The position numbers and the translations under genes are program-made. 64,000 nucleotides of DNA from Escherichia coli. GTDB lineage: Bacteria > Pseudomonadota > Gammaproteobacteria > Enterobacterales > Enterobacteriaceae. The notes beneath the pieces were generated by a model, which searched no databases, had not been told where the DNA came from, and was given only the letters and a program-made list of their open reading frames with translations. Below are positions 1 through 59,628 of this stretch, piece after piece. The stretch lies in assembly GCF_030013595.1 (NCBI RefSeq), contig NZ_CP122768.1; one strand, 5' to 3'. Numbering within the stretch: position 1 is the first letter of the stretch; each line of letters starts with the position of its first letter.

Positions 1-650
1 ATATTGCCGATTACGAGCATCTGGGCGTTTATGCTTGCCGAATTATCGTGCCTGGCATGTCCGATATTTATCCGGCTGAAGATCTGTGGCTGGCGAATAA
101 CAGTATGGGCAGCCATTTACGTGAAACGATTCTTTCGTTACCAGGCAGCGAGTGGGAAAAAGAAGATTACCTGAACCTCATCGAGCAACTGGATGAAGAA
201 GGTTTTGATGACTTTACCCGCGTGCGTGAGCTGTTGGGTCTGGCGACCGGGTCGGATAACGGTTGGTACACCCTGCGTATCGGTGAATTAAAAGCCATGC
301 TGGCGCTGGCTGGTGGCGATCTGGAACAGGCTCTGGTCTGGACCGAATGGACGATGGAGTTTAACTCATCAGTATTTAGTCCGGAACGCGCCAACTATTA
401 TCGCTGCCTGCAAACGTTGTTATTACTGGCGCAGGAAGAAGATCGCCAGCCGCTGCAATATCTGAATGCGTTTGTTCGCATGTACGGCGCAGATGCCGTG
501 GAAGCCGCCAGTGCGGCAATGAGCGGCGAAGCGGCGTTTTATGGCTTGCAACCAGTAGATAGCGATCTGCACGCGTTTGCTGCACATCAGTCGTTGTTGA
601 AGGCCTACGAAAAGCTGCAGCGCGCCAAAGCAGCATTCTGGGCAAAATAA
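1..650 (+). CDS. ycaO: YcaO-family protein, C-terminal part (5' end lies outside window; frame is open from base 3)
   Basis: Open frame continuous from window start to stop at 650; sits directly upstream of focA-pflB as in E. coli; assignment from remembered synteny. Confidence 0.6.
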   Translation, partial: IADYEHLGVYACRIIVPGMSDIYPAEDLWLANNSMGSHLRETILSLPGSEWEKEDYLNLIEQLDEEGFDDFTRVRELLGLATGSDNGWYTLRIGELKAMLALAGGDLEQALVWTEWTMEFNSSVFSPERANYYRCLQTLLLLAQEEDRQPLQYLNAFVRMYGADAVEAASAAMSGEAAFYGLQPVDSDLHAFAAHQSLLKAYEKLQRAKAAFWAK

Positions 651-981
651 AATCAAATAGCCTTCGCAATGTAGGCTTAATGATTCGTCTGAGTTATATT
701 ACGGGGCGTTTTTTTAATGCCCCGCTTTACATATATTTGCATTAATAAAATAATTGTAATTATAAAGTTAAATATCGGTAATTTGTATTTAATAAATACG
801 ATCGATATTGTTACTTTATTCGCCTGGTGCTCCCTTTTAATTAACTGTTTTAGCGGAGGATGCGGAAAAAATTCAACTCATTTGTTAATTTTTAAAATTT
901 ATTTTTATTTGGATAATCAAATAGTTACTCCGTATTTGCATAAAAACCATGCGAGTTACGGGCCTATAAGCCAGGCGAGAT

Positions 982-995
982 ATGATCTATATCAA
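982..995 (+). promoter_or_regulatory. Candidate FNR half-site pair (ATGAT-N4-ATCAA) upstream of focA, followed by a TATAAT-like -10 at 1005..1010
   Basis: Match to TTGAT-N4-ATCAA consensus in the AT-rich focA-pfl promoter region; focA-pfl is known to be FNR-activated. Confidence 0.35.
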
Positions 996-1055
996 TTTCT
1001 CATCTATAATGCTTTGTTAGTATCTCGTCGCCGACTTAATAAAGAGAGAGTTAGT

Positions 1056-1913
1056 GTGAAAGCTGACAACCCTTTTGATCTTTTACTTCCTGCAGCAATG
1101 GCCAAAGTGGCCGAAGAGGCAGGTGTCTATAAAGCAACGAAACATCCGCTTAAGACTTTCTATCTGGCGATTACCGCCGGTGTTTTCATCTCAATCGCAT
1201 TCGTCTTCTATATCACAGCAACCACTGGCACAGGCACAATGCCCTTCGGCATGGCAAAACTGGTTGGCGGCATTTGCTTCTCTCTGGGGCTGATTCTTTG
1301 TGTTGTCTGCGGAGCCGATCTCTTTACTTCCACAGTGTTGATTGTTGTTGCTAAGGCGAGTGGGCGAATCACCTGGGGTCAGTTGGCGAAAAACTGGCTA
1401 AATGTCTATTTTGGCAACCTGGTCGGCGCACTGCTGTTTGTACTTTTAATGTGGCTTTCCGGCGAGTATATGACCGCGAATGGTCAATGGGGACTAAACG
1501 TCCTACAAACCGCCGACCACAAAGTGCACCATACTTTTATTGAGGCCGTCTGTCTTGGTATCCTGGCAAACCTGATGGTATGTCTGGCAGTATGGATGAG
1601 TTATTCTGGCCGCAGCCTGATGGATAAAGCGTTCATTATGGTGCTGCCGGTCGCGATGTTTGTTGCCAGCGGTTTTGAGCACAGTATCGCAAACATGTTT
1701 ATGATCCCGATGGGTATTGTAATCCGCGACTTCGCATCTCCGGAATTCTGGACCGCTGTCGGTTCTGCACCGGAAAATTTTTCTCACCTGACCGTGATGA
1801 ACTTCATCACTGATAACCTGATTCCGGTTACGATCGGTAATATTATCGGCGGTGGTTTGTTGGTTGGGTTGACATACTGGGTCATTTACCTGCGTGAAAA
1901 CGATCACCATTAA
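1056..1913 (+). CDS. focA: Formate channel FocA (GTG start; the 717 ORF is an upstream over-extension)
   Basis: Translation VKADNPFDLLLPAAMAKVAEEAGVYKATKHPLKTFYLAITAG... typical formate/nitrite transporter; precedes pflB. Confidence 0.9.
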   Translation: MKADNPFDLLLPAAMAKVAEEAGVYKATKHPLKTFYLAITAGVFISIAFVFYITATTGTGTMPFGMAKLVGGICFSLGLILCVVCGADLFTSTVLIVVAKASGRITWGQLAKNWLNVYFGNLVGALLFVLLMWLSGEYMTANGQWGLNVLQTADHKVHHTFIEAVCLGILANLMVCLAVWMSYSGRSLMDKAFIMVLPVAMFVASGFEHSIANMFMIPMGIVIRDFASPEFWTAVGSAPENFSHLTVMNFITDNLIPVTIGNIIGGGLLVGLTYWVIYLRENDHH

Positions 1914-1967
1914 TGGTTGTCGAAGTACGCAGTAAATAAAAAATCCACTTAAGAAGGTAGGTGTTAC

Positions 1968-4250
1968 ATGTCCGAGCTTAATGAAAAGTTAGCCACAGCC
2001 TGGGAAGGTTTTACCAAAGGTGACTGGCAGAATGAAGTAAACGTCCGTGACTTCATTCAGAAAAACTACACTCCGTACGAGGGTGACGAGTCCTTCCTGG
2101 CTGGCGCTACTGAAGCGACCACCACCCTGTGGGACAAAGTAATGGAAGGCGTTAAACTGGAAAACCGCACTCACGCGCCAGTTGACTTTGACACCGCTGT
2201 TGCTTCCACCATCACCTCTCACGACGCTGGCTACATCAACAAAGCGTTGGAAAAAGTTGTTGGTCTGCAGACTGAAGCTCCGCTGAAACGTGCTCTTATC
2301 CCGTTCGGTGGTATCAAAATGATCGAAGGTTCCTGCAAAGCGTACAACCGCGAACTGGACCCGATGATCAAAAAAATCTTCACTGAATACCGTAAAACTC
2401 ACAACCAGGGCGTGTTCGACGTTTACACTCCGGACATCCTGCGTTGCCGTAAATCCGGTGTTCTGACCGGTCTGCCAGATGCTTATGGCCGTGGTCGTAT
2501 CATCGGTGACTACCGTCGCGTTGCGCTGTACGGTATCGACTACCTGATGAAAGACAAACTTGCACAGTTCACCTCTCTGCAGGCTGATCTGGAAAACGGC
2601 GTAAACCTGGAACAGACTATCCGTCTGCGCGAAGAAATCGCTGAACAGCACCGCGCTCTGGGTCAGATGAAAGAAATGGCTGCGAAATACGGCTACGACA
2701 TCTCTGGTCCGGCTACCAACGCTCAGGAAGCTATCCAGTGGACTTACTTCGGCTACCTGGCTGCTGTTAAGTCTCAGAACGGTGCTGCAATGTCCTTCGG
2801 TCGTACCTCCACCTTCCTGGATGTGTACATCGAACGTGACCTGAAAGCTGGCAAGATCACCGAACAAGAAGCGCAGGAAATGGTTGACCACCTGGTCATG
2901 AAACTGCGTATGGTTCGCTTCCTGCGTACTCCGGAATACGATGAACTGTTCTCTGGCGACCCGATCTGGGCAACCGAATCTATCGGTGGTATGGGCCTCG
3001 ACGGTCGTACCCTGGTTACCAAAAACAGCTTCCGTTTCCTGAACACCCTGTACACCATGGGTCCGTCTCCGGAACCGAACATGACCATTCTGTGGTCTGA
3101 AAAACTGCCGCTGAACTTCAAGAAATTCGCCGCTAAAGTGTCCATCGACACCTCTTCTCTGCAGTATGAGAACGATGACCTGATGCGTCCGGACTTCAAC
3201 AACGATGACTACGCTATCGCTTGCTGCGTAAGCCCGATGATCGTTGGTAAACAAATGCAGTTCTTCGGTGCGCGTGCAAACCTGGCGAAAACCATGCTGT
3301 ACGCAATCAACGGTGGCGTTGACGAAAAACTGAAAATGCAGGTTGGTCCGAAGTCTGAGCCGATCAAAGGCGATCTCCTGAACTACGATGAAGTGATGGA
3401 GCGCATGGATCACTTCATGGACTGGCTGGCTAAACAGTACATCACTGCACTGAACATCATCCACTACATGCACGACAAGTACAGCTACGAAGCCTCTCTG
3501 ATGGCGCTGCACGACCGTGACGTTATCCGCACCATGGCGTGTGGTATCGCTGGTCTGTCCGTTGCTGCTGACTCCCTGTCTGCAATCAAATATGCGAAAG
3601 TTAAACCGATTCGTGACGAAGACGGTCTGGCTATCGACTTCGAAATCGAAGGCGAATACCCGCAGTTTGGTAACAACGATCCGCGTGTAGATGACCTGGC
3701 TGTTGACCTGGTAGAACGTTTCATGAAGAAAATTCAGAAACTGCACACCTACCGTGACGCTATCCCGACTCAGTCTGTTCTGACCATCACTTCTAACGTT
3801 GTGTATGGTAAGAAAACTGGTAACACCCCAGACGGTCGTCGTGCTGGCGCGCCGTTCGGACCGGGTGCTAACCCGATGCACGGTCGTGACCAGAAAGGTG
3901 CAGTAGCCTCTCTGACTTCCGTTGCTAAACTGCCGTTTGCTTACGCTAAAGATGGTATCTCCTACACCTTCTCTATCGTTCCGAACGCACTGGGTAAAGA
4001 CGACGAAGTTCGTAAGACCAACCTGGCTGGTCTGATGGATGGTTACTTCCACCACGAAGCGTCCATCGAAGGTGGTCAGCACCTGAACGTTAACGTGATG
4101 AACCGTGAAATGCTGCTCGACGCGATGGAAAACCCGGAAAAATATCCGCAGCTGACCATCCGTGTATCTGGCTACGCAGTACGTTTCAACTCGCTGACTA
4201 AAGAACAGCAGCAGGACGTTATTACTCGTACCTTCACTCAATCTATGTAA
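1968..4250 (+). CDS. pflB: Pyruvate formate-lyase (formate C-acetyltransferase)
   Basis: 760 aa, [39 protein letters not shown]..., glycyl-radical C-terminus RVSGYAVRF; strong codon bias. Confidence 0.95.
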
Positions 4251-4441: not shown

Positions 4442-5182
4442 ATGTCAGTTATTGGTCGCATTCACTCCTTTGAATCCTGTGGAACCGTAGACGGCCCGGG
4501 TATTCGCTTTATCACCTTTTTCCAGGGCTGCCTGATGCGCTGCCTGTATTGTCATAACCGCGACACCTGGGACACGCATGGCGGTAAAGAAGTTACCGTT
4601 GAAGATTTAATGAAAGAGGTGGTGACCTATCGCCACTTTATGAACGCTTCCGGCGGCGGCGTTACCGCATCCGGCGGTGAAGCAATCCTGCAAGCTGAGT
4701 TTGTTCGTGACTGGTTCCGCGCCTGCAAAAAAGAAGGCATTCATACCTGTCTGGACACCAACGGTTTTGTTCGTCGTTACGATCCGGTGATTGATGAACT
4801 GCTGGAAGTAACCGACCTGGTAATGCTCGATCTCAAACAGATGAACGACGAGATCCACCAAAATCTGGTTGGAGTTTCAAACCACCGCACGCTGGAGTTC
4901 GCCAAATATCTGGCGAACAAAAATGTGAAGGTGTGGATCCGCTACGTTGTTGTCCCAGGCTGGTCTGACGATGACGATTCAGCGCATCGCCTCGGTGAAT
5001 TTACCCGTGATATGGGCAACGTTGAGAAAATCGAGCTTCTCCCCTACCACGAACTGGGCAAACACAAATGGGTGGCGATGGGTGAAGAATACAAACTTGA
5101 TGGTGTTAAACCACCGAAGAAAGAGACCATGGAACGCGTGAAAGGTATTCTTGAGCAGTACGGTCATAAGGTAATGTTCTAA
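4442..5182 (+). CDS. pflA: Pyruvate formate-lyase activating enzyme (radical SAM)
   Basis: [23 protein letters not shown]... with CxxxCxxC motif ([10 protein letters not shown]); start chosen at 4442 inside the 4415 ORF. Confidence 0.95.
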
Positions 5183-5192
5183 TTTCCCCGTA

Positions 5193-5226
5193 AAGCGGCA
5201 ACTTTATTGAGTTGCCGCTTTTTTAT
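5193..5226 (+). terminator. Rho-independent terminator after pflA
   Basis: Stem gcggcaac/gttgccgc followed by T-run. Confidence 0.6.
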
Positions 5227-5391
5227 TCCGCGCTGCATAAATAATTCAGAGCTCTATTTCTAACGCCCTTACAGCACAGCTTCCAAATGTATTACCCAAA
5301 CCGCCAGTATATGTCCTGCGGCTTGCGCGCATTTCTCGATTATGTAAAAACGGGTCAGATCTGCCAGAGTCAGCGTCATCGACCACAATAA

Positions 5392-16838: not shown

Positions 16839-19800
16839 TTAGTCAAACGGCGGTGGGGCCAGCACTTCACGATTACCGTTGTGCCCCTGTTCGCTGACAA
16901 TCCCCTGCGCTTCCATCTGTTCAATAATACGCGCTGCACGGTTATAACCAATGCGGAACTGACGCTGTACGCCAGAAATTGATGCTTTGCGTTTTTCAGT
17001 GACAAACTGCACCGCCTGATCGAACAACGGATCCAGCTCTTCAGCGCCATCGAAACCGCCCGCGCCACCTTCGCTTTCGCTGTCGGAGGTGATGCCATCA
17101 ACATACTGTGGGCGACCACGCGCTTTCCAGTCCTGCACCACGGCATGAACTTCCTGATCGCGAACAAAAGCACCATGAACACGTACCGGCAACGTGGAGT
17201 TCGGCCCAGAGTAAAGCATATCCCCCATACCCAGTAGTGATTCCGCGCCAGCCTGATCAAGAATGGTACGTGAGTCAATCTTACTGGATACGGTAAAGGC
17301 GATACGGGTCGGAATATTCGCTTTAATCAGACCAGTAATAACATCAACCGATGGACGCTGCGTTGCCAGTACGAGGTGGATACCCGCGGCACGGGCTTTT
17401 TGCGCCAGACGTGCTATAAGCTCTTCCACTTTTTTACCTACCGTCATCATCAGGTCGGCAAATTCGTCCACCAACACCACAATGTATGGTTCTTTTTTCA
17501 GCACCGGATGCTGGGCATCCATACTGTCACCCGGCTTCCAGTACGGGTCTGGAATCGGACGCATCATGCGATCGGCTTCAGCAATTTTTTCGTTATAACC
17601 CGCCAGATTACGCACACCCAGCGCAGACATCAGTTTATAACGACGCTCCATCTCGTTAACACACCAGCGCAGCGCGTTGGCGGCATCTTTCATATCGGTA
17701 ACGACTTCCGTTAACAGATGCGGAATGCCTTCATAAACCGAAAGCTCCAGCATTTTCGGGTCAATCATGATGAAACGCACATCTTCTGGCTGTGCTTTAT
17801 AAAGCATGCTCAGGATCATCGCGTTCACCCCGACAGACTTACCGGAACCGGTAGTCCCCGCAACCAACAAGTGCGGCATTTTTGCCAGATCGGCAACCAC
17901 CGGCTCACCGGCGATATCTTTACCCAGCACCACGGTTAATGGCGACGGATTATCGCGGAATTTGGCGTTATCCAAAACTTCGCGCAGATAAACGGTTTGT
18001 CGTTTTTTATTCGGTAACTCCAGACCTACATAGGGTTTGCCAGGAATAACTTCAACGACACGCACCGCCACCGTCGAAAGTGAACGGGCAAGGTCACGTG
18101 ACAAGTTAGAAATACGCGCCGCTTTTACGCCCGGTGCCAGGTTCAATTCAAAGCGAGTGATAACCGGCCCCGGAGAATAATTGACGACATCGGCTTTAAT
18201 ACGGAAATCAGCCAGACGCGCTTCCACCAGGCGCGCCATTTGTTCAAGCGCAAAGGTATCTACCGGCTCCACTTCGCTCGGCGGCGGCGTCAGCAAATCC
18301 AGAGAGGGCAGCGGCGTCGTCGGTTTATGCAACGGACGGCTGTCGCCATTACGCATCAACAGCGGATGAAGCAGGGTATCCTGCGGCTGTGGCGCAACTG
18401 GCTGTTGCGGCTGCTGTGCAACCGGCTGTTGTGGCTGCTGATATTGCTGCTGCGGTGCAACCGGCTGTTGCGGCTGCTGATACTGCGGCTGCGGCGCAAC
18501 TGGTTGCTGCGGCTGCTGATACTGTTGCTGCGGTGCAATCGGTTGTTGCGGCTGCTGTACAGGTTCAACAATTGGCGTAAACAGCGGTTCGTGTGGACCA
18601 TCATCCAGCAACGCTTTCATTGGCGAAAATTCAAAATCATCCAGCGTGAACGGATTCGCCCCAGCCGGTTGTTCGCCGGAATAACGTTGTTGTTGAGTTT
18701 GCGCAAACTGACGAGCCAGTTCAGCCTCTGCCGCAGCATCTGCATCTTCTGCGTTCACGGGCACATCATGTTGATACTGTTCGCCATAGCGTTGCTGCTG
18801 TGTCTGGGCGAACTGACGTGCCAGTTCATCCTGCTGCATCGCATCGATTTCATCATCGTTATACTGATCGCCGGAATCGTACTGATTGCGCTGAGCTTCA
18901 CGGGCTTTTTCTTCTGCCGCACGCTGTGAGGGCAGCTTAATACCGTAAGACGCCAATTCACGACGAGTTGGCACGCGGATACGTTTCGGTCGTGGCAACT
19001 GCGGGCCAATCCCCTCTTTGACCTGCGGACGCGGTCCACCGCTATTTGCCAGACTGAAGACTGGCGCGGCAACGGTTGCGGCAGCCCCCGTCGCCAGTGT
19101 CGCTTTTTTCACGCCAGATGCCAGCGGAGAAACAGCGGCAGCGGCTTCTACTGGAGGTACTGCTGCAACAGAAGGTGCTTTCAGCGAAGATTTGATCGGT
19201 TCTGGTTCTTTAACCGGTTCTGGAATCGGTTGATACCAGGCCGCAAGTTGTTCACGTTCACGGGCTCGCTTCTCTTCCACTTCTTCAAAGTAGTAAAGCG
19301 GCGGACGCGCGGGTTTTGTCTCTTCTACAACGGGTTCAGGCTCCACAACAGGCTGCTGTTCAACAGGTTGCGGCTGTTGGTACAACGGCTCCTGAGCGAC
19401 TGGCTGCTGATAAGTTTGCTCAGTCTGGTATGTAGACTGTGGAGCAAAAGTGGATTGCTGCTCTTCGGCTTGCCAGGCGTTACCTGCCACCGATTGTTCT
19501 GGCGCAGGGGCGTAATACGGCTGTTGCGCAGACTGTTCCGGCGCAGGGGCGTAATACGACTGTTGCGCAGACTGTTCCGGCGCAGTTGCGTAATACGGTT
19601 GCTGAACAGGTTGTTCCGCCGCAGGCGCATAATACGGCTGCTGTGGCTGTACAGGTTGTTGCAGCGGCTCATTATATTGCACTGCAGGCTGCGCATATTG
19701 TGGCTGCTGTGGGTAACCTTCCGGTGCAGGAGCAATAACCGGTTCTCCCGTTTGCGGCCCCGGTACAGGCTGCCAGGCTACTGTAGGTTGTGCAGGTGCA

Positions 19801-28104: not shown

Positions 28105-28192
28105 GGTGAGGTGTCCGAGTGGCTGAAGGAGCACGCCTGGAAAGTGTGTATACGGCAACGTATCGGGGGTTCGAATCCCCCCCTCACCGCCA
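28105..28192 (+). tRNA. serW: tRNA-Ser (anticodon GGA), long variable arm, CCA encoded
   Basis: GGTGAGGTGTCCGAGTGGCTGAAGGAGCACGCCTGGAAAGTG...GGGGTTCGAATCCCCCCCTCACCGCCA; acceptor stem pairs, anticodon loop CTGGAAA. Confidence 0.9.
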
Positions 28193-52245: not shown

Positions 52246-52745
52246 TTTCCTGGCTTTATGTCGAATAATTCTGTTTATACATTCAGGCAAACTTCATTAA
52301 TAACTCACCGCTTTGGGGATAAATAATAACAACAAAAATCTTCAGATATTAACCTGGTTGTTGGATTTGTTATCACATCCTTTATCCACCTGCTTCTTAC
52401 TGGTAACACACCTGGAAAATCCATGCATTTTCAACATATACTATCCTTTCAACTTGTAAATAAGAAAATATGATGCAGATGGTGAACAATTCAAATATCA
52501 TTTTGCAGGAAGTATTCACTGTAATAGAATTACCCCCTGATAAAGTTTATTCACTAAGGAATTATTCAACAGAAACATTCCCTGTTAGCTTTGAGCAATA
52601 GCACTTATTTTTATATGTATCAGGAATACGTACGTTGATGTAACCAAAACAAAGAAGCCTGTGTCCATGGGGTTCGTACAATTGTGTGTGGCACATGACC
52701 AAATCAGGTTTGAGACCTCCCGCTGCAATATTTTTTATTCAGATT

Positions 52746-55427
52746 TTAGCCTGTCAGGCCTGACAGAAACGCTCCCAACTTCCCTTCTATATCACTGTCT
52801 ATAGTACGTAATCTTAGCAATGGCAGGCCGCATTTCTTCAGTATACTGTTTTTAAGTTCATCACGTTCAGCCTGAACACTGGTCAGATGATAACCTCCAT
52901 CCACTTCAATAACCCCTAATGGAGTCTTCCCGACCTTATAGTAAACAACAAAGTCACAACTGGCCCGGTTACGCATGAATAACTGTTCACGGTGTGTAAA
53001 ATCCCCCCGCTCCAGCGACACCAACTGATTCAGCGCTATTTGTGAATGAAACATCATACTCCGATAACTATCCTGCGACAGGATATCCCGCAACAGGCAG
53101 GCCACAATCTGTTCTGACTTAAAGTGTGAATCATTTGAATTCAATCTACTATTCAGTCGTTCCAGTGATTTGTCATACTCACTGTACAGCAAATCAAATG
53201 CTGATATGACCGGGCTCTCGAAAATCTCTCCGTCATCAGCGTAGTATTTGATGTAACGAATCAGCGCCGCAATATGTCCAGCGTGGCGTTCAAATACATC
53301 ATTACCAGTCACCAGCGTAAATTTATTTCGGGCCCTTGAAACAGCGACATTCACCAGTTCAGGATTATCAACAAACGCGATGTTCCGACTGTGCTGGCTG
53401 CTGCGCTTCTTATCCAGCACAGTGGAAAACACAATTTCATCGCACTCCCGTCCCTGAAATTTATGCACCGTCGATTTCACAAAATCAGCAGGCAGCACTT
53501 TTTCAGCCAGATTAACCTGTGCATTATATGGGGCAATGTATCCCCTGCTACTTTCTTCATCCCAGTAATGACCTTCCAGAGATTCAAGCTCCCTGAGATT
53601 TGAAAAATTACGGGTATGGTTTCCTTTTGCCGTGATGACCAGAGATAATGAGGCTTCACCGGAATCAACCGTTAACGGTATCAGAGCATTATCATAAAAC
53701 TGCTTATTACAAAATTGAATGATTTTAGGATGACAACGATAATGCTCTTTAAGAAGGGTTACTGGCACCATGTTCCTGAACAACATACAAACCGAATCAA
53801 GTAGACTATATTTCTCACAATTATAGTATTCTGCCGGTGGAGATGGGCTGTTCGGGAGTAATACAGGAACATGTGGAAGTTGCTTACGATCCCCTACAAC
53901 GATTACATTACGGGCACATCCCAGTCCCAGAATGCCCGGAACAATATCCTGCTGCGAGGCTTCATCAATAATAACATAATCAAGAAGGGCCCCCTTGCCG
54001 ATAGAGTTAATAATCGAATGCGTACTGCTACCAATAATCGGAAAACGCTTTATAAAACGGTCAAATTCATCCCTGTATGTCTCTGCCGAGAATGAACTTC
54101 TTGTTGAAACATTTCTTCGCAGATGTTGCTTTAAATAAAGCATAGACCATGATGTCAGGCGCCCCAGTAAAATTTTAAAATCAGATTTTTTAAATACTTC
54201 CTCATATTCATTCAGAGAAATTTGTTTTTCCCGGATATTTTTTTCATAATAAGAAAGCTGAAGAGAAGTAAATAGCGCCAGCCTTCTCTCCGGAATCATC
54301 AATGGTTTGACTTTCAGTATCATGAAGTTTAACAACAAATCAATTCTGTTTCTGAATCCAATCCGCCTGTCAGAAAGGTAATGAATATAAGCCATCAGGT
54401 CGGTTGTTTTTTGTGAGGAAAATCGGTATTTGTGAGAAAAAAGCTCCTCCGGTCGAAGATTCTGACTCTGCCATTGCTGCAGGTATTTATACTCAATATT
54501 CAGCTCATTAATTTCTGCTTTTAACGAAGCGACCTGGTTAATGGCATTCAGGTGTTTTTTCACTTGTTGAAGTACATCATCAATCGCATTTGCAGACGGT
54601 GAGTCAGGTAAGACTTCCTCAGAACGCGAAATCGACGTTGAAAAAAACTGTTGCCTGTTCCCCGTACTCCCCAGTCGTGCCATCACATATCCCAGTTGCT
54701 GTTTGTCCATCTTTTCATAAACATTACTGACAGCTGAGTTATTATTGGACAAAATTGCCACTGTTTTATTCTGAATTAATATATTAGCAACAATATTGAG
54801 TATAGTCTGTGTTTTACCTGTTCCAGGTGGTCCTTCAATAACTGAAATCTGTGAGGAAAATGCCCGTTCGACAGCCAGCAACTGACTTTCATTAAGACCA
54901 AACGGAAAAATCAAACCCCATGGCGAATCACGTTTTTTACTCTGTCCTGAACAGTATGCATGCAAGGCGGTATCCGGATGAGGAACTATTTTCTTTATCT
55001 GCCTAAGGATATTCTCATCGATATTTCTGTTATTACCACGGGCATAAAAAATACGTTCATTAGCCACCCTACACAAGTAATTAAACACGGCATGCTCTGT
55101 AAATGCTGAACACTGTTGAAAGTCAAGGCCGGTCGTTTTCATGATGTAGGGTCGTTCACCCTCGCGGTAATAAACAGCAGCATATTTATCACCATATATA
55201 ATAACCAGTTCAGCCCGGGATGTTACAGCGTTCCCTTTCCTTTCGAGGAAAACATTTCGCAAATTTACAGTTGGCGTTATCTGACATACAGAAAGCGGAC
55301 GAGTATATTTTCTCCCGCTGCGAAAATGACAGGTCAGCATAACCTCTCTGTCGTCATTTCCAGCCCACAGCGTCCAGTCGGTAATTTTATGAGTCTTATT
55401 TTCACCGTCAACACAAATCGTGACCAT
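52746..55427 (-). CDS. Superfamily-1 (Upf1/DNA2-like) helicase with unknown N-terminal domain and C-terminal restriction-endonuclease-like domain
   Basis: Walker [11 protein letters not shown], Walker B IIDEASQ, motif VHKFQGRECD; C-terminal ...VYYKVGKTPLGVIEVDGGYHL...ERDELKN... endonuclease-like signature. Confidence 0.75.
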   Translation of the reverse strand: MVTICVDGENKTHKITDWTLWAGNDDREVMLTCHFRSGRKYTRPLSVCQITPTVNLRNVFLERKGNAVTSRAELVIIYGDKYAAVYYREGERPYIMKTTGLDFQQCSAFTEHAVFNYLCRVANERIFYARGNNRNIDENILRQIKKIVPHPDTALHAYCSGQSKKRDSPWGLIFPFGLNESQLLAVERAFSSQISVIEGPPGTGKTQTILNIVANILIQNKTVAILSNNNSAVSNVYEKMDKQQLGYVMARLGSTGNRQQFFSTSISRSEEVLPDSPSANAIDDVLQQVKKHLNAINQVASLKAEINELNIEYKYLQQWQSQNLRPEELFSHKYRFSSQKTTDLMAYIHYLSDRRIGFRNRIDLLLNFMILKVKPLMIPERRLALFTSLQLSYYEKNIREKQISLNEYEEVFKKSDFKILLGRLTSWSMLYLKQHLRRNVSTRSSFSAETYRDEFDRFIKRFPIIGSSTHSIINSIGKGALLDYVIIDEASQQDIVPGILGLGCARNVIVVGDRKQLPHVPVLLPNSPSPPAEYYNCEKYSLLDSVCMLFRNMVPVTLLKEHYRCHPKIIQFCNKQFYDNALIPLTVDSGEASLSLVITAKGNHTRNFSNLRELESLEGHYWDEESSRGYIAPYNAQVNLAEKVLPADFVKSTVHKFQGRECDEIVFSTVLDKKRSSQHSRNIAFVDNPELVNVAVSRARNKFTLVTGNDVFERHAGHIAALIRYIKYYADDGEIFESPVISAFDLLYSEYDKSLERLNSRLNSNDSHFKSEQIVACLLRDILSQDSYRSMMFHSQIALNQLVSLERGDFTHREQLFMRNRASCDFVVYYKVGKTPLGVIEVDGGYHLTSVQAERDELKNSILKKCGLPLLRLRTIDSDIEGKLGAFLSGLTG

Positions 55428-55667
55428 ATTCTTACTCAGAAATTATCATTTAACTTACGGAAAATTGTTAAGGCACTCCCGATATTAGCTCCGGAGGATT
55501 TTCCACAACTCCGGGACTGTTAACATATTTCTGCCTGCCATATATACATTGAATTTAGTCATAACAGTCAATACCAGAATTACAGGAATGCGATGCCGAT
55601 ACGCTGGTTATTGAATACTGGTAGCCCCTGAGCACTAATTCATCACGATACTCTGTATTTACTGTTT

Positions 55668-56801
55668 TCACTGCTTTTTACAACCATTCCCCCAGGTAAA
55701 ATGCTGCTCCTCCGGTGATGGCTGTGTCAGAAACTGCCATCCCGGAATAGCCACGCTGACCGCCAGCAATGCCGCACAGACACCAGCCACAAACGGTTTC
55801 AGAAACGTGGGCGGGGATTTCTGAAGGGAGGGTGACTGCTCCGCCTGCACTTTCCCCTTGCGATTATCAAGGCTCAGTGCATCCAGACGCACCGCGCCAT
55901 TTGCCGCAAGCAGCCCTTCCCGGTTATCCACGCTTCCCGGCAGACTCAGCGAAAAATCCCCTGTTCCCGTCTGAATCAGACTGCCTTTACGATTTGACAG
56001 GCTTTGTGCCGATATCTGCAGTGTGTCGGCATTTATCGTACCGCCATTACTGCTGAACTGCCCGGCAGTCCGGGCGGAAAGCGTATCGGCACTCAGTTGC
56101 GCATTCTGTGTAGACAGATTTCCACTGGTTGCATTCAGCTCAGTATGTTGTCCCTGTATCCGGCTGTTACCTAAATCCAGCCCCTGCTCAATGTCCCGTA
56201 AATCCAGCAGAGAACCTTCGTGTGCCGGGAATGAGGAATACAACTGAATATAGTCATCACTGTCCGGTGTCAGACGCACATGTCGCACAACACCGGGAAT
56301 AATAACCAGCCGGAGGATACCGCTTTTTAAATCCTGCGAAGGTGCCAGAACACGGGTGGTGACATAACCATGATCGACCAGACGGTTCTGCAATGTACTC
56401 ATCAGCAGATTAATTCCTTTCGCCCCCAGGCAATGCCCGACCGCCCCGTTGGCGATTTTTTGTAAAGGCAGCCAGTGTGGTAACGCATCAGCCCCCTTCA
56501 GTTCCGTCTGTTTAATCTGAAAACAGGGCGTTTCAACAGGAAAATTAATCTTATGGGCAAAAGAGCCAGGTGCAGAAAGGCGAACATCAGGGGCTGAAGG
56601 CGTCAGTTGTTGCTCAAGGGCTTCCTGACGCTGCTGCTGAATGATAAATGCTTCATCTCCGCTACGCCGGACATCCGCTGCCTGAAGAGATAAAGGCGAT
56701 AATAAAGCAGACATCAGTGTCAGTGACAGCAAGGACGGACAGCGCCGGAATAAGCTTTGTTCCTCAGTCCTCTCGTTCCTGCAACATAATTTTCCAGTCA
56801 A
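55668..56801 (-). pseudogene. Probable remnant of a two-partner-secretion locus: TpsB-like (ShlB/FhaC/CdiB) signal peptide and POTRA region fused to hemagglutinin-repeat-like sequence
   Basis: N-terminus ...[26 protein letters not shown]...[11 protein letters not shown]... then Ser/Asn/Gly-rich repeats ...[10 protein letters not shown]...; too short for an intact TpsB barrel. Confidence 0.35.
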
Positions 56802-57388
56802 ACGAAAAACCTTTTATTCATGTCATACCAACAATCACCAGCCTCCTGACGATACCTCCCACCATGTTTTGCGATGGCACGCTACCGCCCTTCCGGTATT
56901 TACCCGCATCAACCGGTACCAGAATGCTGAGTAACAAACCAGCTAGAATTGACTTAATTTTGATCATTATAGAATAATGATCTGAACTACAGCAACATGA
57001 CAGATTTATCGATCGATATAACACAAATGAACAGTTCTTTATTCTGACAAATATCGCAAAAACAGCACATTACAAAATTTATAACCATAATTACTGGAAA
57101 AGTGCAGAAAATTATTCCACTGAATGCTTTTAATACAGTTGGTTAGCTTAAAAAATAGCAATTTTTGATTTCAGTCATTGAAAGTTGCAATGTTTGACGA
57201 TTCAACAGCATTTAAGTGAGTTTCAGGATATGGGAAGGACATGAAAGGAGGAGCGCAATAAAATACACAGGAAGAAGGGGAAAATGTTTCGTAAAAACAG
57301 AAAATTAACAGCGCACATCAGGAAACGCAGTCTCCTGATTCAGTGCTACCACATGAAAATTTAGTTAACTGTTACCGTACTAAAATTT

Positions 57389-57580
57389 ATGTCAGAAGAT
57401 GTTCCATTACCGAAAGTCAATCAGCGATACAAAGACGATCATGGTGCGCTTGTCACCCTGACCAGTGTTGAGGAAACCCGGGTGGTGTTTATGCAGGACG
57501 GCTATCCGCATCCCTGCATGCGACCGATGTACAACTTTCTGGGAAAATTCAAACCCGAACCCCGGGAAGAAACAGAATAA
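57389..57580 (+). CDS. Small hypothetical protein
   Basis: 63-aa ORF in intergenic position; weak. Confidence 0.25.
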   Translation: MSEDVPLPKVNQRYKDDHGALVTLTSVEETRVVFMQDGYPHPCMRPMYNFLGKFKPEPREETE

Positions 57581-57632
57581 AACGAAATCCCTGCCGGCAA
57601 TCACACTACCTGATAGCAGCATAATCCACTTA

Positions 57633-57941
57633 TTAATTCTCATCCCCGGAGACAAGCCCAGAAAACCACTCCGGGTGTTCACTGTATGCCGTGTTCAGCG
57701 CATCCCTGGAAACGTTTATATAAAAGCTGTCCTGCAATTTGCGGGTAACAACTTCTGCCAGGCGATTCCGGTTATCCACCAGTCCGGCATAACCTCTCTC
57801 TGCCAGCCACTCATTCAGTTCATGTTCCAGAGACAGATTGATAATATCATAATCGGACCTTGCCATTCCCGTTTCCTTAGCACATGTTTTCAGGCACGGG
57901 GATAAAGTATAAAGAATGTCATACTGCTGCTGCCAGAGCAA
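57633..57941 (-). CDS. Small hypothetical protein (true start may be internal ATG at MARSDYDIINL...)
   Basis: ORF co-oriented with adjacent YfjJ-like pseudogene. Confidence 0.3.
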   Translation of the reverse strand: MLWQQQYDILYTLSPCLKTCAKETGMARSDYDIINLSLEHELNEWLAERGYAGLVDNRNRLAEVVTRKLQDSFYINVSRDALNTAYSEHPEWFSGLVSGDEN

Positions 57942-57961
57942 TATTCCCCCTGATGGTTGTA

Positions 57962-59183
57962 TCAGAGATGGTATGCCGGTACTTTGCGGGTTGTTCCCGT
58001 CAGGTTATCGTGCACCTCCACGGTCGTGGTCACCACCGGCATTCCGGCCTTTCTCAGCCTCAGAACATCAGCCGCAATACGCTGACTGCCAAACCAGAAC
58101 AGGCCGTCCAGTGCAGTCACCAGTAAACCCGCCTCCAGTGCATACTTCAGCCGTTCACGGGGCGCTTTCACTTCCCGGGCAACCTGCTGATATGGCAATG
58201 ATGTGTTTTCATTCCCAACCACGCGACGAATACGGTGAGACAGATGATACCGGTATGTATCCGGCACACCAGAAAGGCTGGCCTTCAGGCTGTACACGCA
58301 GCCAAACCGTTTATCGTTAAACACCTCATTTTTCTGGCTGATGCCCCATTCTTCACGCAGCGCGGCAATCAATTGCGGTGTACGGGTAAGCAGCAAGCGA
58401 AAAGGCAGTTCAAAACTGGTGACGTAATCCACATTCAGCAGTGCAATACGCAACCGTTCTTCTGGCCCGGCCTCTGTCTGCCGGCACTCCTCCAGAACAT
58501 CCTGCCACTGCCGGCGAAGACGGGGGGATTCGTTCCGTTCTGTAAAACAGTATTTATCCGCCAGATAGTCAATTCGTGTACGCATACTGAAAGGAATTCC
58601 GTATAAAGATTCAGCAGACAAAACTTTATCAGCCAGTAAAAATTAACGGAAGCATTGATATTCCTCCCGACAATCACCGGATGATTGTTGCAATAACCTG
58701 CGACATAAAGGACTGAACAGCCGTTTTTAACGCCACGTATTGCCCTGATGAACCAGGCCGGGCCACCCGAAAACATCTTTCCACCCGGCATTGTCCGCCA
58801 GCACTTATCACCGACCAGGTCTGTTGCAGTAAATCCACCAGTTGCGCACATTCTTCATCAGCCATGACGCCGACTCGCGGATGGCAAATACTCGTCTGGC
58901 TGAGCAGCAACAGACATCGTATCTGTGCTCCTTCATGTTGTTCCCGCAACCAGCGTAATACCACCGGCGCTGATGGGCTGACCGTGTGATTATGCTCCGT
59001 AATACGTTCGTGTACCCGTCGGTGAAAGGAACTACAAAATGTCTGAATCTGTTGACCATAGATTCCTTCTGCCGAATAGAGCGTGAAGTGAAATGCCAAC
59101 AGATTTGGCCAGTGGTCCACCGCCTGCTGAACAAAACGCCGGATTTCCCCCGGCTCTGAAATTAAGGCTTCGGTTATTTGCAC
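57962..59183 (-). pseudogene. Split YagK/YfjJ-like (inovirus Gp2-type) gene, two consecutive ORFs 58674..59183 and 57962..58621
   Basis: Two adjacent same-strand ORFs whose combined length matches an integrase-proximal prophage gene family; interruption near 58620..58675. Confidence 0.4.
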
Positions 59184-59628
59184 GAAATGTTCCTTTTCAA
59201 CCCCTGTTGAATTTTGTCAAGCCGGTGCAGACACAGTAAAGCGCGCATCAACACCTGAAAGGTACGATACAAACACAAGTTACAAACAATAAGAACGGAA
59301 GGACAATTAATCAGTGAGGAATAATAACTAAATTAACCAAAAGAATGTTACTGACAATACTACCAATACTTAAATAGCAATATATTAATTAATGTAAGAA
59401 CAGATGCCCGGTAGGACATATACACAATACATCCACAAACACACTCTTTTCATTAAATCAATCACCTGATTAAACCATGAAAGTGTGATGTAAGTCAAAA
59501 TTACTGATACTATCAATTGATAATGATTATCTCTATCATTATCGTGAAATTCGAGAATGAAAGGAGAAGTAGTCATTATAAGCCTTTTATAAATCGTCAT
59601 CATCATAGTAAAGTAGAACACTTTTTAT

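Follow-up and report, generated by a model that had tools for sequence, protein, structure and literature searches.

The open reading frame (ORF) on the minus strand at 55668..56801 of the 64-kb stretch of Escherichia coli chromosome analysed here (the window) is an in-frame chimera of three parts, in which the 5′ end of cdiB is followed by an internal piece of cdiA and then by a fragment of a vasL-like gene (Table 1). Its extent, 377 codons from a TTG, agrees exactly with that given in an earlier sequence-only reading of the locus. PGAP places the start at the ATG at 56714, which yields a 348-aa product (WP_001345400.1, 'POTRA domain-containing protein') that carries no pseudogene flag; 1,000 or more public contigs carry the exact protein, and its second name is 'ShlB/FhaC/HecB family hemolysin secretion/activation protein'. 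The same reading frame is also open upstream in intact loci (e.g. 158274-3, L005), and gene calls for intact CdiB reach 579 aa. Hydropathy analysis of the longer form reveals a putative signal peptide, with a hydrophobic core at aa ~21-42 that has RR before it and LQA/AD after it, and this signal/H1 region aligns with the N-terminus of CdiB in structure 6WIM.

The transporter-like beginning proposed in the sequence-only reading is borne out by the domain content. A complete POTRA_2 domain (Pfam; E=1.3e-22, profile positions 1-76 of 76), at the start of which lies the motif quoted in that reading, is followed by a POTRA_3 match (E=5.4e-9) that covers only profile positions 2-40 of 56, compared with 2-56 of 56 in the intact homologue. 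TpsB/CdiB transporters require two complete POTRA domains, and the second is cut here at profile position 40 of 56. The ShlB/FhaC-type barrel (PF03865) has no match in the ORF at E<=1, whereas it occupies aa 230-543 of the intact CdiB of strain 89-3156 (numbered from the upstream TTG). The ORF is indeed too short for a TpsB barrel, as had been surmised, with 377 aa against the 551-579 aa of intact CdiB. Intact CdiB proteins of 550-579 aa, which carry POTRA_2, POTRA_3 and ShlB, match at 89-98% identity; only 48-60% of the ORF is covered by these ShlB/FhaC/CdiB proteins, and no intact family was seen to align with it over its full length. The only solved structures matched are those of CdiB, namely 6WIM (E. 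coli EC93, E=2.2e-15) and 6WIL (Acinetobacter), with ORF residues 48-227 of the former alignment paired with residues 8-185 of the 538-residue chain.

The character of the protein changes beyond the transporter-like part. The combined content of Ser, Asn and Gly rises from 17% before the switch to 34% after it, and the 20-aa filamentous-haemagglutinin (FHA) repeat TIGR01731 is found at aa 279-314 (NCBIfam; E=6.1e-11), so that the FHA/CdiA-like sequence noted earlier from about residue 200 onwards is real, with the switch to exoprotein sequence at codons 205-209. However, it does not extend to the end of the ORF, the last 55 residues being a vasL-derived hydrophobic segment and its tail. This segment accounts for a second hydrophobic stretch at aa ~330-360; neither VasL (PF12486) nor ImpA_N was matched by Pfam in the ORF, which retains the transmembrane segment alone.

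Table 1. Positions of the chimeric ORF, its segments and junctions, and the blocks shared with strain 89-3156 (L007)
Feature	Position in window or ORF	Strand	Description
Whole chimeric ORF	55668..56801	minus	TTG start at 56801; 377 codons
Segment 1, cdiB 5′ end	codons 1-209	minus	Signal-peptide-like start, complete POTRA1, truncated POTRA2, without β-barrel
Segment 2, cdiA FHA-1 repeat piece	codons ~206-323	minus	CdiA residues 436-554
Segment 3, vasL-like transmembrane segment	codons 323-366	minus	Followed by 10-11 read-through codons
Signal-peptide-like N-terminus, aa 1-41	56679..56801	minus	Hydropathy, conserved upstream frame; cleavage site inferred
Mature cdiB-derived N-terminus (H1/linker, POTRA1, truncated POTRA2)	56176..56678	minus	Pfam, nucleotide identity, 6WIM alignment
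POTRA1 (complete), aa 94-170	56292..56522	minus	Pfam
POTRA2 (truncated), aa 172-209	56175..56288	minus	Pfam
Junction 1, 12-nt microhomology GCAGGGGCTGGA	56176..56187	minus	Common to cdiB and cdiA; Q-G-L-D/E in both
Internal cdiA fragment, FHA-1 region	55833..56187	minus	Residues 436-554 of the 3037-aa CdiA of 89-3156
Junction 2, cdiA/vasL-like gene	55831..55834	minus	~2 nt microhomology
vasL-like (ImpA_N-TM-VasL) fragment	55702..55834	minus	Native vasL frame; transmembrane helix ~55731..55808
Junction 3 and read-through tail	55668..55701	minus	vasL breaks at ~55701/55702 into spacer upstream of helicase gene
Block shared with 89-3156	56176..59320		L007 20888..23996; 93.4% identity; 5′ cdiB and upstream genes
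Block shared with 89-3156	55833..56187		L007 17560..17914; 91.8% identity; cdiA codons 436-554, FHA-1 region
Block shared with 89-3156	52445..55834		L007 1954..5343; 98.6% identity; vasL-like fragment, spacer, helicase
IS target site CCA	56836..56838		~35 nt upstream of TTG; IS629-type IS3 element in O157:H7, 3-bp duplication

The ORF lies on a genomic island (28342..~64000) whose edge falls just after a tRNA-Ser(GGA) gene (28105..28192), beside infA, and a related island in EDL933 (L001) has the same gene order around the ORF. The island cargo comprises a CP4-like module (cbtA/yeeU toxin-antitoxin, antirestriction and DUF932 genes), a patatin/RdcB/dynamin trio, the Cah autotransporter, IS66 copies, IbrA/IbrB/PerC and IS1. 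Directly upstream of cdiB, a 49-aa ORF (MIKIKSILAGLLLSILVPVDAGKYRKGG..., WP_000590537.1, 56818..56967, minus strand) with a signal-peptide-like start has a near-identical counterpart upstream of the intact cdiB of NC101 (L002 5208..5357), and may encode a leader or regulatory peptide associated with cdi. On the other side, the helicase gene (52746..55427, minus strand) is intact in the window and encodes 893 aa of SF1 type (AAA_11/AAA_12) with a C-terminal DUF2726, resembling nuclease-helicase genes of the defence type; the EDL933 copy is broken into two CDSs, and that of 89-3156 has a frameshift. A Pfam search of the six neighbouring ORFs returned nothing related to cdi, but rather this helicase, a DUF4222 protein and an HTH_39 match below cut-off (E=0.0092, 16.3 bits versus 21.3). 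In a scan for promoters and terminators, sites were no more numerous than in shuffled sequence, and on the strand of the ORF none lay upstream of it.

Comparison with intact class IV cdi loci

Intact cdiB-cdiC-cdiA-cdiI loci occupy the same island position in NC101 (L002), 158274-3 (L005), 89-3156 (L007) and P393-F10 (L009), and share with the window the upstream DUF4222 gene and hypothetical genes. The hallmark of class IV systems of contact-dependent growth inhibition (CDI) is cdiC, a gene for an HlyC-family lysyl acyltransferase placed between cdiB and cdiA (Halvorsen et al. 2021, PMC8510554), and the parental locus is assigned to this class because its HlyC-family cdiC sits in that place. 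The array of 89-3156 runs from the DUF4222 gene through cdiB, cdiC, cdiA and cdiI to type VI secretion relics, a truncated vasL and the helicase gene. Its cdiB is a single ORF of 551 codons and its cdiA a single ORF of 3037 codons, the product of which contains ESPR, TPS (aa 68-330), FHA repeats and PT-VENN (aa 2716-2766). A cdiB frameshift, as annotated in NC101, 158274-3 and 89-3156, was considered and rejected, since an uninterrupted 551-codon ORF is present in each. For the CdiA of P393-F10, the annotation gives a polymorphic toxin type 25 domain (Ntox25), the toxin type of CdiA-STEC4 (PMC8510554). The relics between cdiI and the helicase gene of 89-3156 comprise a tssE pseudogene (L007 9097..9466), Ail/Lom, exonuclease and the 5′ part of vasL (ImpA_N fragment, L007 5735..6001).

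The window and 89-3156 share three blocks that are collinear, in the same order and orientation and at the same island position (Table 1). Against the four intact loci, the comparison suggested in the sequence-only reading finds the ORF collinear to cdiB codon ~209 and resuming 2,985 bp further on, inside cdiA. Segment 1 is 93-96% identical to intact cdiB at the nucleotide level, and base-level comparison with the parental sequences places the switch from cdiB to cdiA identity across GCAGGGGCTGGA, at codons 205-209. The 2,985 bp missing at this junction, a multiple of three (3 x 995) that leaves the frame intact, correspond to the cdiB barrel, cdiC and the 5′ 1.3 kb of cdiA. The 12-nt repeat at the switch points to a deletion between short direct repeats. 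For the cdiA piece, the closest donor is the cdiA of P393-F10 (98.3% identity).

At junction 2, a further 12,216 bp are missing relative to 89-3156, comprising the rest of cdiA, cdiI, the tssE pseudogene, the Ail/Lom gene, the 3′-5′ exonuclease gene and the ImpA_N part of the vasL-like gene. The proposal that a deletion had fused the 5′ end of a transporter gene to exoprotein sequence thus describes the 2,985-bp loss at GCAGGGGCTGGA correctly, but it misses this second deletion of 12.2 kb, which makes the product a fusion of three parts rather than two. Segment 3 matches the transmembrane region of an uninterrupted 455-aa ImpA_N/TM/VasL ORF in E. coli 042, where this ORF terminates a tssG-tssJ-tssE type VI secretion cluster; apparently, the ancestral island carried the end of a 042-like cluster beside the cdi locus. 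The same IbrAB-PerC module as in the window follows the type VI secretion/vasL end in E. coli 042 (L012). Some genomes carry segment 3 under the label 'ShlB/FhaC/HecB... incomplete', and its origin from cdiB was therefore considered; it has no similarity to intact cdiB and is the vasL-like transmembrane region, and the 'ShlB' label is a circular annotation derived from the chimera itself. The vasL truncation at junction 3 is also present in 89-3156, beside the same helicase gene, despite the intact cdi locus of that strain.

Nothing further of the cdi genes survives in the window. Searches of the 64-kb window with intact CdiA proteins (tblastn) found no cdiA-derived sequence beyond the fragment of residues 436-554, with the TPS domain absent, and those with CdiC, CdiI and the proteins encoded downstream of cdi at three reference loci gave no match in the window either. 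The VENN motif is absent from all six frames of the window, and neither the ORF nor its neighbours nor the rest of the window gave any sign of ESPR, TPS, PT-VENN, a C-terminal toxin or cdiI. The class IV hallmark itself is gone from between cdiB and cdiA, as cdiC falls within the 2,985-bp deletion. The 64-kb window likewise holds neither a receptor-binding domain nor an orphan toxin/immunity module, and the expectation that toxin or immunity fragments might lie near the ORF is contradicted by tblastn, the VENN scan and the Pfam search of the neighbours.

Distribution and further alleles at the island position

The chimera was found in ~490 of 5,426 complete E. coli genomes (about 9%), nearly all at >=99% identity, with carriers counted by a probe that spans all three junctions and was at least 80% covered. 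Among the carriers are O157:H7, O145:H28, O111, O26:H11, O55:H7 and porcine ETEC, and they include most EHEC serotypes; the window matches porcine ETEC strain ETEC1747 at 100% identity over positions 39001-64000. Another ~160 complete genomes match the 355-nt cdiA piece alone, indicating that cdiA is present there without the chimeric junctions. Compared with P393-F10 (L009), the chimera shows 3 synonymous and 7 non-synonymous differences in segment 1, and 1 synonymous and 4 non-synonymous in segment 2; insofar as these small counts, which partly predate the deletions, can be read, the mostly non-synonymous differences fit relaxed constraint.

Other genomes have lost different portions of the same locus. 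In strain 219, a 437-nt cdiB stub is fused to the 3′ part of vasL; in the alleles L003 and L010, a 129-nt cdiB stub is followed by an IS remnant, and ~600 genomes match only the first 129 nt. Further cdiB fusions in the protein database combine POTRA with PT-VENN and Ntox25 (P0094) or POTRA with VasL (P0037). Truncation and fusion alleles at this island position (L003, L006, L010, and proteins P0009, P0037, P0091 and P0094) represent at least four different alleles, and the cdiB-vasL fusions among them occur at several different points. The cdi locus at this position is repeatedly and independently dismantled. That this repetition reflects selection against carrying or expressing class IV CDI in these lineages rather than neutral decay, or that the chimera is expressed with an acquired envelope function, seems to us very unlikely.

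In O157:H7, an IS629-type element has inserted at the CCA upstream of the ORF (L001 9442..10748 in EDL933; absent from the window), so that there is no sign of expression being preserved in that lineage. In some strains (OK1, UTME-4), the stretch holds two IS copies.

A longer form of the chimera, which continues into a complete VasL domain (PF12486), was encountered once, in a 2,195-nt Logan contig (L011, ERR11010899; protein P0002, 554 aa), and in none of the 5,426 complete E. coli genomes. This full-length VasL conflicts with 89-3156, in which vasL is truncated beside an intact cdi locus, unless alleles have recombined or the contig was mis-assembled; L011 is thus a chimera of the assembly or else a rare intermediate allele. 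As a single 2.2-kb contig absent from complete genomes, P0002/L011 was not adopted as an evolutionary intermediate.

Origin and status of the chimera

Very probably, the ORF is a fused pseudogene without function, the chimeric remnant of a class IV cdiB-cdiC-cdiA-cdiI locus on a tRNA-Ser (serW/serX-type) island. The starting state is preserved in the array of 89-3156, with the cdi locus, type VI secretion relics, vasL and helicase gene. One illegitimate recombination event removed 2,985 bp between the 12-nt direct repeats in cdiB and cdiA, and another the 12,216 bp that separated cdiA codon ~554 from the vasL-like transmembrane segment, with the reading frame kept by chance at both deletions to leave one ORF of 377 codons. 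Translation would yield a product exported by Sec and consisting of the CdiB H1 helix, POTRA1, an incomplete POTRA2, ~114 β-helix residues of CdiA and a C-terminal hydrophobic helix. Such a protein is most likely without function: lacking the β-barrel, it could not transport; lacking the TPS domain, its CdiA piece could not be secreted; and with no receptor-binding domain, toxin or immunity gene, it would provide neither inhibition nor protection. Function would thus have been lost, and the chimera would have spread by hitch-hiking with the island.

Two features of the chimera might nevertheless be read as signs of usefulness, namely that its frame is open in ~490 genomes of several pathotypes and that both junctions are in frame, with no pseudogene flag on the product. 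An expressed protein kept for a new function could, for example, be a periplasmic or inner-membrane-anchored POTRA/β-helix protein that interferes with CdiA or BamA-dependent traffic or attaches to TPS domains, and the plausible signal peptide and C-terminal transmembrane helix would be in keeping with this. However, we consider this reading very improbable. The POTRA2 domain is truncated; the uniformity among carriers is that of islands >=99% identical, which argues for recent island spread rather than long-term purifying selection; O157:H7 tolerates an IS ~35 nt in front of the start codon; in other strains the same locus has been lost to varying extents or altogether; and most differences from the parental alleles are non-synonymous. 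The intact ORF is explained as well by a recent horizontal spread of the island, together with the 1-in-9 chance of two in-frame junctions, as by function.

The alternatives to a double deletion concern how, or whether, the fusion arose. The unequal identities of the segments to 89-3156 (93%, 92% and 98.6%), the origin of the best donor of the cdiA piece in another strain (P393-F10, 98.3%), and the L011 and 89-3156 alleles, which imply some exchange between island variants, would all suit a mosaic formed by recombination or gene conversion between separate cdi and vasL loci. Set against these are the collinearity of the segments within one array of 89-3156 that occupies the same place on the island and the 12-nt direct-repeat signature of simple deletion at junction 1, and the unequal identities are accounted for by allelic divergence among islands; we therefore hold a mosaic origin to be highly doubtful. 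It is next to inconceivable that the ORF is an intact, naturally short POTRA-only family member or an artefact of assembly or sequencing. Databases do name the protein as an ordinary 'ShlB/FhaC/HecB family' or 'POTRA domain-containing' protein, but intact members align with its first 48-60% only and the remainder is 92-98% identical in DNA to internal cdiA and vasL, while an artefact is at odds with the identical sequence in hundreds of independently finished genomes. Overall, two in-frame deletions in one island array, leaving a pseudogene, provide the preferred account of the ORF.

Annotation consequences and relation to known systems

The chimera has a side effect on the annotation of intact loci. 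In 89-3156, PGAP pseudogene features coincide with the segments of the chimera (L007 20836..21426, 'POTRA...'; 17548..17913, 'hypothetical'; and 5176..5353, 'POTRA...'), and in P393-F10 an internal cdiA stretch (L009 5974..6339) is labelled 'POTRA domain-containing protein'. The intact 455-aa vasL-like ORF of E. coli 042 (L012 6326..7693) similarly appears as three pseudogene pieces, of which the central one is designated 'POTRA'. Pieces of cdiA and vasL are therefore labelled 'POTRA domain-containing protein' or 'ShlB/FhaC/HecB' without containing any such sequence, and the underlying cdiB (551 codons), cdiA (3037 codons) and vasL-like ORFs are uninterrupted. It appears that the chimera has been accepted as a reference protein, and that PGAP accordingly cuts intact cdiB, cdiA and vasL into false pseudogenes. 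RefSeq-based surveys of CDI and type VI secretion in E. coli could as a result undercount intact class IV CDI systems, and could count EHEC strains as having a TpsB transporter. The biological weight of the remnant is small, amounting to the ordinary decay of a horizontally acquired locus, although it does show that a class IV CDI system and type VI secretion relics were formerly present on these EHEC and ETEC islands; the annotation consequence outweighs the biological one. A full-text literature search, of incomplete coverage, returned the class IV CDI paper and island reviews, in which the remnant is undescribed.

The closest relatives of the ORF are class IV cdiBCAI loci of the CdiA-STEC4 type (PMC8510554), to which segments 1 and 2 are 92-98% identical in DNA and whose island position they share. 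In contrast to these loci, the window lacks the CdiB barrel, cdiC, the ESPR/TPS region of CdiA, the receptor-binding domain, FHA-2, PT-VENN/toxin and cdiI, which makes CDI impossible. With TpsB/Omp85 transporters (CdiB 6WIM and 6WIL; FhaC/ShlB), the likeness extends through POTRA1 and most of POTRA2, whereas the 16-stranded barrel of these transporters has no counterpart in the ORF. From the 455-aa VasL/ImpA_N type VI secretion accessory protein of E. coli 042, the ORF keeps ~44 residues (323-366) in the native frame. Orphan cdiA-CT/cdiI modules downstream of cdi loci are also island leftovers of rearranged cdi loci, and they keep the toxin/immunity ends; the remnant described here, in contrast, keeps the opposite end, the 5′ part of cdiB joined to cdiA repeats.
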